Shown here: piece by piece, positions 11,749 to 35,582 of the stretch
Layout: every line of letters starts with the position of its first letter
Numbering within the stretch: position 1 is the first letter of the stretch
IMG/VR virus record: IMGVR_UViG_3300030330_006525
Span: 32,001-96,000 of that record
Direction: 5' to 3' (one strand)
DNA: 64,000 bases
Source of the DNA: a virus
Taxonomy: Duplodnaviria > Caudoviricetes
Notes under the pieces: generated by a model
The model's input: only the letters and a program-made list of their open reading frames with translations
Databases searched by the model: none
What the model was told of the DNA's origin: nothing
Program-made: the position numbers and the translations under genes

Positions 11749-11821
11749 AGCCCGCGATAGGACTTGAACCTACAACCTATTGATTACAAATCAATTGCTC
11801 TACCAATTGAGCTACACGGGC
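11749..11821 (-). tRNA. tRNA-Thr(TGT), no encoded CCA
   Basis: GCCCGTG/CGCGGGC acceptor, TTTGTAA loop, canonical D and T arms. Confidence 0.93.
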
Positions 11822-30107: not shown

Positions 30108-30768
30108 AAAACTTGATTTTTTTACTGTTCTTGTACTTTGGTTTGTTTGATAGCTTCTTTTCTCTTTTGACAGATTCTAATTTAATAATCTCTGCATATT
30201 CATCTGATAAATATTCCTCACAATAAAACTTAACCATCGTTAAGCAATATTCAAAATCATTTATAAATTTTGACGGGACCTTAGATTTAACAACAATGTC
30301 CTTGAAATTAGGATCATAATCTACTCTGTTCGATTTGTAAAATATAATTTCGCCAATAAAAGAATCGGATATCTTTATAGAATCAACGTCTGAAAAGTCT
30401 GTACCCTGCTTAACTTCAAGCCAATCTATGGTTGTAAATACACTGTTATCGTGACTGATTAATTGGTTGTCTTCAACAACTAAGTTATCATAATCAAATA
30501 TATGACATTCACTATACTCATATTTGTAGTTCCCCATTTTAGAATTTACTTTAATAAACTCTTCAGTTATACGAATAGTGTCTATCTCGCCATGATATAT
30601 ATCTCGACCTGAAAGGCCTAAATGAAACAGCTTCTTATGCCATGCTTCTTTGTGTTTCTCATAGATTGATGGACTAACTGCTGTGTTTCTTATAAGAGAT
30701 GCTTGTTCTTTCTCCACAAACTCTAATGATTTTAAGGAGTTACCAATTACAACTTTTTCTAAAAACAT
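30100..30768 (-). CDS. Hypothetical protein with degenerate Rossmann-like N-terminus
   Basis: Start MFLEKVVIGNSLKSLEF; resembles an eroded FAD-binding beta-alpha unit. Confidence 0.45.
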   Translation of the reverse strand: MFLEKVVIGNSLKSLEFVEKEQASLIRNTAVSPSIYEKHKEAWHKKLFHLGLSGRDIYHGEIDTIRITEEFIKVNSKMGNYKYEYSECHIFDYDNLVVEDNQLISHDNSVFTTIDWLEVKQGTDFSDVDSIKISDSFIGEIIFYKSNRVDYDPNFKDIVVKSKVPSKFINDFEYCLTMVKFYCEEYLSDEYAEIIKLESVKREKKLSNKPKYKNSKKIKFYD

Positions 30769-33008
30769 AAAAGTAACTGGTAATTGTAGTGATAACTGGC
30801 TGTATAAAGTGCGGCGTCCTGTGGTTCGTACTGTGCTTGCTCCTCCTCTGCAGGACCCAAACAAGCCTCATCGATAATGGACATCAAGTTTTCATACATT
30901 TGGTTTTGATTCCATGTTAACTCAAACTCGCTACCTCCAGTTTCATTTGCCCATTGTGCCCAGTTACCAGAGTTGTATGAAGTTATAAAGGTATAGAGCT
31001 TAAATCTTGTTATACCTGCCAAAGTATGACTTATTACTTCCGGGCCAATTTCCGGACGCAACCATGATTGGTCTGGTTCGTCAGAAAAGACAATTACAAT
31101 CTTGTCTACATTCTCTCTCCAGTTAATCTTAAACTCATCCTTGCTAGGTGTTGATGCGGTATTACAGCACCAATCAACTACGCCGACATTAAAAATAGCA
31201 TTTGAAGAAATATCTTTCACAGATAAGTATAGAGCATCTCTAAGCATTTCGGTGCTTGTATCCATTCTATCTGAATTTAAAGCAGCAAAAGCTGACAAGA
31301 AATCTTCGAAAGGCGCGATATCTGAAATTAAATATAGCCTTTCCCTTTCCATGTCGTCTGACCTTGGGCCAACAACCAAGCCCCATTGTAGCTTACCTTC
31401 ATCTTGAAACTGGGATGCAAACCTGTTTAGCGCTGAACGGACAGCAGCTATTTCGTCGTCCATAGAGCCAGACCAATCAATGATAAACAAGATATCCGTA
31501 TCTTTAATCTCTTCCCCATAGTCTGTTACACCGTCGCAATCGTTGTCGGCTGCATCACAAACCTCTTGAGATGGAACGATTTCATCTTTACAGAGGTCTC
31601 TCTGAAAGTTGTCCCATCTGTCCATATTGCCCCATTGACCTTGGTTACATATCATGCTCCCAGCCTTACAAACTCCAACATCCAGAGTTTCACTTGGTCC
31701 AGTATAACAAGCAACCAGTAATTCTTCGTCAACAGACTGGTCGCAATCTTCATCAAAATTATTGCAGATTTCATTTTGAACTTCCATACCTGCATATTGG
31801 TCGCACTCTTGGTCTGCCAGTGTAGCTAGCTGAGCACAGAGAGCAAGACACTCGGACATAGTTAAGCTGGTACATTCAGGTGGGTCATTGCACTCGCAGG
31901 TTTTAAATCCCTGGCCACATCTTAGTGGTGGTTCAGAACAAGGTATTAAAACCCCTACGTCCTGTACTGTACACTCGCAATTGAGACCCTCATCAATTAG
32001 CCCATCGCAATCTTGGTCAACACCATCACATGGATCAACTTCTTCTACTGGCTGGGCAACTGTACAAGATATCCAATTGCCAAAGGAACAGGTCTCTAAG
32101 CCGACACCACAAGCTGTTTCGCATTCTCTAACCAGCTCTTCATCAATTTGTCCGTCGCAGTCATCGTCGATACCATTGCATTCATCTGCTGGAACTGCGC
32201 CGCACTTGTCACATTCGTTTCGCTGACCTTCGTCAACTTGGCCATCACAGTCGTTATCTTCATAATCACATACTTCTTCTCCTGGAGATGCAGCATCGCA
32301 ATCAATTATTTGTGCATCAACACAGAATCCCCAACCCATACCACATTCGTTTTCACATAGAAACCTTCCTTCATCGACCCTATTATCACAGTCATTGTCC
32401 TCTCCATCACAAGATTCATCCTGACAAGGCTGGCAAGGACCGTGGATTAAATTACCTTTTCTGCAAAGAACCCTTTGCTTACCAAATCGACCATCAGCTA
32501 ATTCGCAATCAAACCACTCGATTTGACTAGTCTCTGTGTTTGGTGGGCATTCGAAAGCTAGTTCACACTCTTCACGTCGTATGATTTGTGGTGGAGGACA
32601 ACCCTCATCTAGTCCGAAATCACAAGGCTGGCTTGTTTCATCACAAACTGAAACTGTGACCCTAGAACGATGAATCTGATTATCGGGACGAGGAGGGCAA
32701 TACCACTGCTGTTGTTCGCAACACTGTGGGTTACAAGTACAGTAAAGCTCAAAGTCTGCAGGGTCTTCGTCACCCTCACAGTCGCTAGTAAACCCAACCT
32801 CACTAACTGGTGGTAGGTCTGTGCCGCCTGATTCTAAAGGAGTAAAAACATCAATTGGCACAGTACCACCCGAAGACTCTACTTGCGAACCAGCAATAGT
32901 TTGAATTGATAGAGTTGGCGCTGGTTCAGAACTAGTGTCTATATACGCAGACTCTGGTGTCTTATCTTTACATCCAAGCAAAAAGATTACAACTAGTAAA
33001 TATCTCAT
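30759..33008 (-). CDS. Lipoprotein with Cys-rich CDGxDNDCDGxxDEG repeats and C-terminal vWA domain
   Basis: Start MRYLLVVIFLLG-C lipobox; about six CxxxDxDCDxxxDE repeats; DILFIIDWSGSM MIDAS, VFSDE. Confidence 0.88.
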   Translation of the reverse strand: MRYLLVVIFLLGCKDKTPESAYIDTSSEPAPTLSIQTIAGSQVESSGGTVPIDVFTPLESGGTDLPPVSEVGFTSDCEGDEDPADFELYCTCNPQCCEQQQWYCPPRPDNQIHRSRVTVSVCDETSQPCDFGLDEGCPPPQIIRREECELAFECPPNTETSQIEWFDCELADGRFGKQRVLCRKGNLIHGPCQPCQDESCDGEDNDCDNRVDEGRFLCENECGMGWGFCVDAQIIDCDAASPGEEVCDYEDNDCDGQVDEGQRNECDKCGAVPADECNGIDDDCDGQIDEELVRECETACGVGLETCSFGNWISCTVAQPVEEVDPCDGVDQDCDGLIDEGLNCECTVQDVGVLIPCSEPPLRCGQGFKTCECNDPPECTSLTMSECLALCAQLATLADQECDQYAGMEVQNEICNNFDEDCDQSVDEELLVACYTGPSETLDVGVCKAGSMICNQGQWGNMDRWDNFQRDLCKDEIVPSQEVCDAADNDCDGVTDYGEEIKDTDILFIIDWSGSMDDEIAAVRSALNRFASQFQDEGKLQWGLVVGPRSDDMERERLYLISDIAPFEDFLSAFAALNSDRMDTSTEMLRDALYLSVKDISSNAIFNVGVVDWCCNTASTPSKDEFKINWRENVDKIVIVFSDEPDQSWLRPEIGPEVISHTLAGITRFKLYTFITSYNSGNWAQWANETGGSEFELTWNQNQMYENLMSIIDEACLGPAEEEQAQYEPQDAALYTASYHYNYQLLLCF

Positions 33009-33010
33009 CT

Positions 33011-33718
33011 TTACTCCATGTGTACTTTCTTGTATGCCTCCACTGAATGTGGAAAATATTCTTGTGCTATCTTTAAACAAGCGTTTGCCACCTTTTGTAT
33101 TTCCCATTGAGCACCAGCATGTGTTCTTAAAGACACAAACTTTAAAAGGTTGTGCAGATTGACTGTGCCATAATATTCTGTATATAGATTCTGTGGTAAG
33201 ACACCTCTTGCTTGCTCCCTACACACTCCAGCCTTCAACATTGAATTGTAAAGAGACAAAGAGATTGCATGATGATTTTTGACCATGTTAGTTGCTGGAC
33301 CTGTCATTTCAAAGGAATCATCATGACCGCTACAATAAACAATTGGGTTAGTAAGCAGTTCAGTACTAGCTTGCCTATTAGACTCGTGTTGAGATCTAAA
33401 CGAAGTTGGTGTATAGAACTTCATATCGATACTAGTATACCTTCTGCTAATTTCATTGTAAGCCCACGTTCTGTGCCTATGGTGCTGGCTCCTTATGAAA
33501 AGAGGAACAGTGAAGCGGAACGTAATACTACAATGCTCAAAAGGACTAGTATGGTTGTGAGACATAAGGTAGTTAATGAGCTTAATATCTTTATCATTTA
33601 GTTTCTCCTTTTCTTTTCCAAAACTTACACGGGCAGCATTAACCACAGATAGGTCTGAACCCATGTGGTCTATGTATTCAACTGCACCGACTTTATCATC
33701 AAACAATTCAATTTTCAT
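33011..33718 (-). CDS. thyX: Flavin-dependent thymidylate synthase
   Basis: AARVS, HTSPFEH, RHR...NEISRRY, REQARGVLP, AQWEI. Confidence 0.96.
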   Translation of the reverse strand: MKIELFDDKVGAVEYIDHMGSDLSVVNAARVSFGKEKEKLNDKDIKLINYLMSHNHTSPFEHCSITFRFTVPLFIRSQHHRHRTWAYNEISRRYTSIDMKFYTPTSFRSQHESNRQASTELLTNPIVYCSGHDDSFEMTGPATNMVKNHHAISLSLYNSMLKAGVCREQARGVLPQNLYTEYYGTVNLHNLLKFVSLRTHAGAQWEIQKVANACLKIAQEYFPHSVEAYKKVHME

Positions 33719-35447: not shown

Positions 35448-35476
35448 ATTATACAAAATTTTACGAGATTTGTAAA
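35448..35476 (-). promoter_or_regulatory. Sigma70-like promoter TTTACA-N17-TATAAT for the Mom-like gene
   Basis: Intergenic. Confidence 0.7.
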
Positions 35477-35490
35477 GAAAAAAAAGGATA

Positions 35491-35562
35491 AGCCCAAGGC
35501 AGGATTCGAACCTGCAATCTCTTCACTGGTCATGAAGCACCCTACCTTTGGGTTACTTGGGC
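35491..35562 (-). ncRNA. tRNA-like cloverleaf with non-canonical anticodon loop TGACCAG (nominal ACC, G at position 33), no CCA
   Basis: GCCCAAG/CTTGGGC, ACCC/GGGT, CTTCA/TGAAG, GCAGG-TTCGAAT-CCTGC all pair perfectly. Confidence 0.8.
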
Positions 35563-35582
35563 TTAATCCCTTTTTGGGATGA

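Follow-up and report, generated by a model that had tools for sequence, protein, structure and literature searches.

What is the role of a viral tRNA gene that folds into a flawless cloverleaf, carries an anticodon loop poorly suited to decoding, and lies directly upstream of the gene for a DNA-modifying enzyme? The question is raised by a tRNA-Gly-like gene in the window, a 64,000-nucleotide stretch (positions 32,001 to 96,000) of the IMG/VR record IMGVR_UViG_3300030330_006525, which is a viral genome of 185,578 bp and 37% G+C from marine metagenomes, rated complete by CheckV. Phage tRNAs otherwise supplement codons or help to evade tRNA-targeting defences, and such ordinary tRNAs have U33 in a 7-nt loop, as do the other four tRNAs of this phage (Lys-ttt, Arg-tct, Ile-tat, and Thr-tgt, all with canonical loops), whereas the tRNA-Gly of the window lacks U33 and is tied to one enzyme gene. 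We considered that this tRNA is probably a glycine carrier supplied by the phage for the adjacent Mom enzyme and not a codon reader. The features of the locus and the loop types of the tRNA family are listed in Table 1.

Table 1. Features of the tRNA-mom locus, with positions in the window, and anticodon-loop types among the 19 distinct family sequences.
Feature	Coordinates	Strand	Basis, location, or occurrence
GmrSD_N/DUF262-domain ORF, 411 aa	35583..36818	(-)	PF03235, E 1.4e-14; upstream of the tRNA
Leader hairpin ATCCC-AAAAA-GGGAT	35566..35580	(-)	Sequence, fold; right after the stop codon of the upstream ORF
tRNA-Gly-like gene, 72 nt	35491..35562	(-)	Rfam, ARAGORN, model R1, covariation; G1 at 35562, U73 at 35491
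Anticodon loop UGACCAG (U32 G33 A34 C35 C36 A37 G38)	35526..35532	(-)	Sequence, ARAGORN
Trailer TATCC and T8 run	35478..35490	(-)	RNAfold; T8 itself at 35485-35478
Sigma-70-like promoter TTTACA-17-TATAAT, 11/12	35448..35476	(-)	Promoter scan; between the tRNA and mom
Mom-family GNAT, 351 aa	34362..35417	(-)	Pfam, PHROG, PDB 8bv8; starts 73 nt downstream of the tRNA, same strand
Loop UGACCAG, G33			Window, L090, L091
Loop UGCCCAG, G33			L006, L094
Loop UGUCCAG, G33			L011 type, L086, L103a
Loop CCCCCAG, C33			L012 type
Loops CAAUCCAG and CAAACCAG, 8 nt			Six sequences
Loops CUCCCAG, UUUCCAG, CUUCCAG, and UUUCCAA, canonical U33			Five sequences

The original prediction had described a minus-strand cloverleaf with mismatch-free stems, a canonical T-loop, an anticodon loop with G33, and no encoded CCA, and this description was borne out by the sequence, ARAGORN, and Rfam. 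The acceptor stem (GCCCAAG/CTTGGGC), the D stem (ACCC/GGGT), the anticodon stem (CTTCA/TGAAG), and the T stem (GCAGG/CCTGC) contained no mismatch in 21 pairs; the D-loop AAAGGTA included the GG dinucleotide, and the T-loop was TTCGAAT. In a comparison with Rfam, the RF00005 model scored 58.5 bits (gathering score 29), with an E value of 4.6e-10 when the whole 64 kb were searched, and the D-loop GG, the T-loop, the complete pairing of the stems, and the covariation described below agreed with membership of this family. The score for the family model R1 was 94.2 bits. ARAGORN labeled the gene tRNA-Gly(acc), which matches the ACC glycine anticodon that had been read from the sequence. With 7 nt and A37, the loop resembles that of a decoding elongator tRNA, but G33 replaces U33. 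The discriminator U73 is followed by TATCC, and no PF01743 CCA-adding enzyme was found in the phage genome, so the CCA end would have to come from a host enzyme. Two other readings of the same stretch were rejected: on the plus strand (loop CTGGTCA, nominal Thr GGU), only a sub-threshold noise match of 21.7 bits was obtained, and a match to the SpF41 sRNA (26.5 bits against a gathering score of 52) was a sub-threshold resemblance to another tRNA-plus-U-run shape. Outside the window, ARAGORN called a tmRNA with the tag ANNDVELDNFAQAA at C1:9641-9927 (-) of the genome.

The adjacent enzyme is encoded by the only Mom gene in the phage genome. Its assignment to PF25680 was based on the profile score (E 1.6e-45, 155.7 bits against a cut-off of 27.1), and it belongs to PHROG 1384, Mom-like. 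Alignment with Mu Mom (PDB 8bv8, E 2.5e-10) revealed that the essential arginine motif PRNSE is conserved, with R111 of Mu Mom aligned to R88 of the window Mom, and that the counterpart of S124 falls inside an unaligned insert. Mu Mom has 231 aa (232 residues in the 8bv8 chain), whereas the window Mom reaches 351 aa with basic inserts; the insert at about residues 99-135 is strongly basic. Mom homologues in the tRNA-linked clade described below (L087/L015, L011-L014, and L103-L107) range from 296 to 428 aa, owing to inserts after PRNSE and in the region of the HTH-like insertion of Mu Mom. Upstream on the same strand lie genes for the DUF262/GmrSD_N protein and for a class II ribonucleotide reductase (RNR), and downstream of mom, again on the same strand, a small ORF and genes for GroES and ThyX. 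A 782-aa protein encoded next to ThyX at 30759-33107 (-) contains a metal-binding motif of the MopE type and matches VWA weakly.

Mu Mom moves glycine from Gly-tRNAGly to N6 of adenine in double-stranded DNA (Silva et al., preprint 2023; Nat Commun 2026, PMC13219725). It accepts all three E. coli tRNAGly isoacceptors, rejects Gly-tRNAAla, and needs the terminal ribose of the tRNA (PMC13219725). Since all isoacceptors are used and Gly-tRNAAla is rejected, Mu Mom reads the tRNA body or the acceptor end and not the anticodon. This dependence was established only in 2023-2026 and was interpreted by Silva et al. as scavenging of host tRNAs, with phage tRNA genes unmentioned (PMC13219725). The present locus is like that of Mu in having a clear Mom-family GNAT and differs in its tRNA: Mu uses those of the host, whereas here a tRNA-Gly of the phage itself, with a loop that is often unfit for decoding, lies directly upstream of the enzyme gene.

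Relatives were collected from both sides of the pair. With the window Mom as the query, 80 loci were obtained from viral contigs, and ARAGORN reported a tRNA-Gly-like gene directly upstream of mom in 9 of the 15 loci nearest to the window; the remaining 65, which are more distant, had none. On the tRNA side, a pattern of the 3' half only, which ignored the anticodon loop, matched four sites in viral contigs, all adjoining mom, and 26 loci in metagenomes, of which 22 were family members; a stricter loop-blind pattern that included the variable region gave no match in viral contigs. A mom homologue was located downstream on the same strand at the four viral sites and in all 21 metagenome members with downstream DNA, at a gap of 48-143 nt (546 nt in L086). 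The linkage with Mom-like genes that had been suggested as a check was thus found in every family member with enough downstream DNA. Nothing among 50,697 phage records matched the window locus in a blastn search, and the Moms of isolated phages are distant only (<40% identity).

The 19 distinct family sequences were aligned (alignment A2), and 99.2% of the cloverleaf cells were paired. Compensatory changes were observed in eight pairs, among them all five pairs of the anticodon stem; none of 500 shuffles reached the observed level, and slid controls collapsed. Six of the seven acceptor-stem pairs were invariant and the seventh covaried, and the anticodon stem covaried freely. The pairs G1:C72 and C2:G71 and the nucleotides U73, C35, C36, and A37 were identical in all 19 sequences. 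A51:U63 was likewise invariant, together with G49:C65 and C or U50:G64, and the D-loop GG and the tertiary partners of the T-loop were conserved. A comparison of homologues had been proposed to see whether the stems are conserved while the loop is free, and this is the pattern observed, with variation at positions 32-34 and in the length of the anticodon loop. Could the gene nevertheless be a decaying tRNA pseudogene or an assembly artefact, as the non-canonical loop and the unencoded CCA would allow? We assign this a negligible probability. The perfect stems, the compensatory pairs, and the extent of pairing oppose it, in line with the argument against decay that the original prediction had drawn from the intact stems. 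Moreover, two diverged relatives (the independent metagenome contigs L090 and L091, with Moms 84% and 81% identical to that of the window) share the UGACCAG loop although other positions of their tRNAs differ, so the loop is neither a recent mutation nor an assembly error. Contigs from two further public runs, which belong to a study that may also be the source of the window DNA, span the loop with zero differences.

The anticodon loops of the family depart from those of other tRNAs. U33 is retained in 5 and lost in 14 of the 19 members, compared with 115 retained and 4 lost among 119 other distinct tRNAs in all the DNA analysed, which served as controls (Fisher p 5.8e-12 for retention). The six members with 8-nt loops have no U 5' of the anticodon; for this reason, and because the linkage to mom is common to them, a frameshift-suppressor reading of these relatives was set aside. 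Relatives with a normal loop had been named in advance as evidence against a genuine anomaly. Such relatives do exist, namely the five canonical members; the closest relatives, however, share the identical odd loop, and others are odd in different ways, so the anomaly is a property of the family. The canonical members fit drift from a decoding ancestor.

These data bear directly on the alternative of an ordinary tRNA-Gly that decodes and adds to the host pool for phage translation, with its adjacency to mom a matter of inherited gene order and its loop oddities tolerated. We consider this alternative unlikely. It would agree with the presence of four other codon-supplementing tRNAs in the phage, with the canonical UCC or CCC loops of the five members, and with a T-loop, a D-loop GG, and a T stem like those of a normal elongator tRNA. 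It does not account for the loss of U33 or for the 8-nt loops, and loop types switch between near-identical Moms while C35, C36, and A37 remain constant. In addition, the other four tRNAs read A-ending codons, whereas the window tRNA combines A34 with G33. Several points weigh on the same side against a glycine carrier: the five fully canonical members could decode, G33 lowers ribosome function but does not provably abolish it, and an ACC anticodon reportedly can read glycine codons in engineered systems.

The invariant positions acquire a meaning when compared with the requirements of glycyl-tRNA synthetase (GlyRS). The determinants of bacterial GlyRS are G1:C72, C2:G71, U73, C35, and C36 (PMC10464925), and all five are present in the window tRNA and invariant in the 19 family sequences. 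The 4:69 pair of the family is pyrimidine:purine, opposite to the R:Y pair preferred by L. plantarum GlyRS (PMC10464925). To judge from these nucleotides, the family tRNA, which has every known bacterial determinant for glycine, looks chargeable by host GlyRS. As to its origin, the exact tRNA 3' half was absent from 185,579 species genomes, so the gene is not a copied host tRNA. A cellular origin was likewise rejected with a looser pattern, which gave mostly tRNA-Thr genes, none of them near Mom; the acceptor 3' strand CTTGGGC with U73 also occurs in cellular genomes mostly in tRNA-Thr genes. The best non-self match to the family model was the phage's own tRNA-Thr(tgt) at 11749-11821 (-) of the window (genome 43749-43821), with 58 bits. 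A tRNA of the Thr type may have been the ancestor of the Gly-like family.

In the Mom tree, all tRNA-linked Moms fall into one clade (support 99/99), inside which one subclade (L001-L004 and L010, with a dUTPase gene upstream) has no tRNA. When model R1 was applied within 3 kb of 66 outgroup or tRNA-less Mom loci, no family tRNA was found except for a deformed look-alike in L079. Most linked loci share the RNR...ThyX synteny, with RNR 82-88% identical in nearly all of them and about 73% identical in L008/L084. Because most loci are syntenic and belong to one marine phage lineage, part or much of the linkage between tRNA and mom is inherited gene order, as the ordinary decoding alternative would have it. 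Against that alternative, the linkage persists outside the synteny in L103/L104, L105, and L107, where the neighbors are either a TSP3-repeat protein together with ClpP or a peptidase M15 together with an SLT domain protein; the pair therefore occurs in at least three genomic contexts, and the independent ones are only these. Among the relatives, the stretch that separates RNR from the tRNA is a site of variable insertions, and its length runs from about 40-100 nt (L006 and L015) up to about 1.6 kb (the window and L009/L083). The DUF262/GmrSD_N ORF is one such variable insert, common only to the window and L085 (71% identity; tblastn of flanking genes).

On the Mom tree the tRNA loop types are dispersed, and different tRNA types accompany Moms that are nearly identical (L007 and L085; L008 and L102). 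Since the tRNA alleles do not track the Mom clades, there is no sign of tight pairwise co-evolution of Mom and tRNA, and strict co-evolution is not proposed. The scatter, as read from these sequences, points to fast turnover or cassette exchange. At two loci, L103:6690-6871 (-) and L104:3143-3328 (-), two tandem family tRNAs precede one Mom, the distal copy with UGUCCAG (G33) and the proximal copy with the canonical UUUCCAG; this arrangement may represent a division of labor or a snapshot of divergence.

The sequences that flank the tRNA may have an accessory role. It had been predicted that the cloverleaf is mounted on a terminator-like stem, and the elements of this mount are real in the window: the leader GGATTAA can pair with the trailer TTATCC with one bulged T, the T8 run follows directly, and the 5' flank can form the ATCCC-AAAAA-GGGAT hairpin, whose 3' arm GGGAT can alternatively pair with the tRNA trailer. 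In the minimum-energy fold of the tRNA with its flanks (RNAfold), a helix between the leader AAAAAGGGAT-TAA and the trailer TTATCC-TTTTTT surrounds the entire tRNA. A scan for classical intrinsic terminators found none at the locus, and the helix abutting the T8 run is a long-range leader/trailer pairing that the acceptor stem closes, unlike the classical terminator, a short GC-rich hairpin with a loop of 3-8 nt right before a U-run. Several relatives are alike in this respect. L085 has a homologous leader hairpin with a different loop (ATCCC-CGAA-GGGAT), and a leader-trailer pairing of A-tract, GC, and T-run, in differing sequences, was observed in L085, L107, L103a, L103b, L008, and L090. 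The mount as a family feature did not hold, since no such pairing was found in L007, L088, and L105, where a separate upstream hairpin is present instead. In most family members a T-run lies 4-7 nt past the discriminator and is followed by the -35 hexamer; L012/L099, L102, L107, and L103a have degraded versions of it, in the form of shorter runs rich in T and C, with the hexamer further downstream. The TTTACA/TTGACA...TATAAT block is kept in relatives between the tRNA and mom. The T-run and stem could end the tRNA transcript before mom transcription starts from its own promoter, direct the processing of the RNA, or serve the mom promoter as an UP-like element.

Punctuation of transcripts by tRNA-like structures is a known principle, and a cis-acting RNA would be an alternative to a carrier: the tRNA fold, the leader/trailer stem, and the T-run would punctuate the upstream transcript by an RNase P/Z cut or a terminator and insulate the mom promoter, with charging unneeded. 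The pairing followed by a T-run in the window and in L085, L107, L103, L008, and L090 is in its favor, as is the strong mom promoter that starts right past the T-run. Punctuation, however, needs only the acceptor and T arms, and it leaves the invariant C35, C36, A37, and U73, the D-loop GG, and the T-loop partners unexplained; the irregular occurrence of the stem and the negative terminator scan also count against it. We judge a purely cis-acting role to be quite unlikely. Such a role could coexist with that of a carrier, and the leader, trailer, and T-run were treated as an accessory feature compatible with the tRNA being a glycine carrier.

The rapid turnover of positions 32-34 among close relatives resembles arms-race variation, and this would suit a decoy or sponge, that is, an imitation of tRNA-Gly, uncleavable or non-decoding, that sequesters a tRNA-targeting host defence (an anticodon nuclease or a GNAT toxin such as TacT) or another factor that binds tRNA-Gly. 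GNAT toxins specific for Gly-tRNAGly do exist, according to work cited in PMC13219725. Nevertheless, a decoy would leave the strict placement before mom unexplained, no defence or toxin partner was seen at the locus, and the invariant features are exactly the GlyRS determinants; the probability that we attach to it is very low. The original prediction had offered a menu of roles for a tRNA mimic. Its option of an amino-acid donor for the neighboring GNAT enzyme is the one favored by the mom linkage, the frozen GlyRS determinants, and the relaxed decoding features, and nothing was found to support those of a nuclease-resistant decoy, a RelA or T-box ligand, or an RNase P switch.

A glycine carrier is the best reading because the stems, the acceptor end, and the GlyRS determinants are kept, the features needed for decoding are relaxed, and the place before mom is fixed. 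In the mechanism that we propose, the tRNA would be transcribed with or after the upstream gene, RNase P and 3' nucleases of the host would excise it, and a host enzyme would add the CCA end. Host GlyRS would then charge it. Mom, expressed from its own promoter with the -35 hexamer 15 nt past the tRNA, would take the glycyl group from the 3' end of the tRNA and place it on N6 of adenine in the double-stranded phage DNA, as Mu Mom does, to yield the restriction-resistant carbamoylmethyl-adenine. Decoding would be dispensable or selected against, so that the anticodon loop could vary in its 5' half (G33, C33, and 8-nt loops) and the ribosome would not drain the charged pool. The loss of decoding may either have been selected, for a ribosome-proof charged pool, or merely have been tolerated. 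Whether the tRNA goes as far as being inert in translation, with the carrying of glycine to a DNA-modifying enzyme as its only job, and forms with Mom a portable cassette and possibly a partly orthogonal pair, is in our estimate evenly balanced. Mu Mom works with ordinary host tRNAGly and one Mom subclade has no tRNA, so a private tRNA is not strictly needed. Defects in the anticodon loop, moreover, would leave binding to EF-Tu possible.

A close known parallel to the proposed carrier is found in staphylococci. The non-proteogenic tRNAGly NP1-NP3 of S. aureus and S. epidermidis are glycine donors for FmhB, FemA, and FemB, and their altered T-loop and first T-stem pairs lead to weak EF-Tu binding (PMC7826273). 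These dedicated tRNA-Gly paralogues are charged normally by GlyRS and feed a GNAT-fold aminoacyl-transferase over the ribosome, and the phage case would be analogous. A51:U63 is common to the phage family and the staphylococcal non-proteogenic tRNAs, whereas the proteogenic ones have G51:C63. The means of setting the tRNA apart differ. The staphylococcal tRNAs have a normal UCC loop, a T-loop with UGC or UGU, an altered D-loop, A49-U65, and U50-A64; the phage family has kept the T-loop TTCGAAT, the D-loop GG, and G49:C65, and its anticodon loop is altered instead. Of the T-stem set associated with weak EF-Tu binding (A49-U65, U50-A64, and A51-U63), the phage family matches the third pair only. 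The acceptor in staphylococci is a peptidoglycan precursor, whereas that of the phage tRNA would be DNA, and the phage gene is viral and adjoins its enzyme. The phage tRNA would thus be analogous to the staphylococcal non-proteogenic tRNAGly group but is not a member of it.

A second parallel concerns the position of the gene. In the ssrA islands of Dehalococcoides, a conserved tRNA-Gly-like "pseudo-tRNA" is embedded in a mom homologue, and no function was proposed for it (McMurdie et al. 2011, PMC3146451). As at the present locus, a tRNA-Gly-like structure is physically tied to a Mom homologue, and this was noted before the tRNA dependence of Mom was known. The Dehalococcoides element belongs to bacterial islands and lies inside the mom ORF, in its first 150 bp, whereas the phage tRNA is free-standing, separated from mom by a promoter, and located in a lytic-type phage genome. 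The acceptor strands GCCCAAG and CTTGGGCT of the phage tRNA resemble the codons of the conserved Mom motifs MPKL and LGWG (35330-35250 (-) of the window and L079:3072-3142), which are separated by about 70 nt close to where mom ORFs begin and recall the embedded Dehalococcoides locus. A second "tRNA" inside the mom ORF at L079:3072-3142 (9.3 bits) was rejected as pairing of the MPKL/LGWG codons only, with no cloverleaf.

What was already known, then, is a link between Mom and host tRNAGly and one embedded tRNA-Gly-like locus with no function proposed; the literature searched contained no proposal that the donor of Mom is a non-decoding tRNA-Gly encoded by a virus. If the proposal is true, some phages provision the Mom reaction themselves, and the phage tRNA would join the staphylococcal cell-wall tRNAs as the second natural case of a tRNA specialized for a non-ribosomal acceptor, and would be the first in which that acceptor is DNA. 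A carrier role would also account for a class of odd phage "tRNA-Gly" and "pseudo-tRNA" annotations. The family would offer natural experiments to distinguish the tRNA features recognized by GlyRS, by EF-Tu, by the ribosome, and by Mom, and the pair suggests a compact combination of donor and enzyme for enzymatic DNA labeling.

Two further RNAs were observed beside more distant Mom homologues. At L079:3791-3857 (+), a deformed tRNA-Gly-like RNA lies 2 nt past the stop codon of a Mom that is 42% identical; it has the acceptor stem GCGAGUA/UACUCGC, U73, the anticodon loop AUUCCAU, a reduced D arm, and the T-loop UGCGAAU (as in the staphylococcal non-proteogenic tRNAs), and it scores 22.6 bits with model R1 and is missed by both ARAGORN and Rfam. 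At L066:2894-2977 and L068:2894-2977 (+), an ordinary-looking tRNA-Leu(taa) with an Rfam score of 55.6 bits ends 12 nt before the start of a Mom homologue of 40% identity, which may be a coincidence or a hint that some Mom-like enzymes use another aminoacyl-tRNA.
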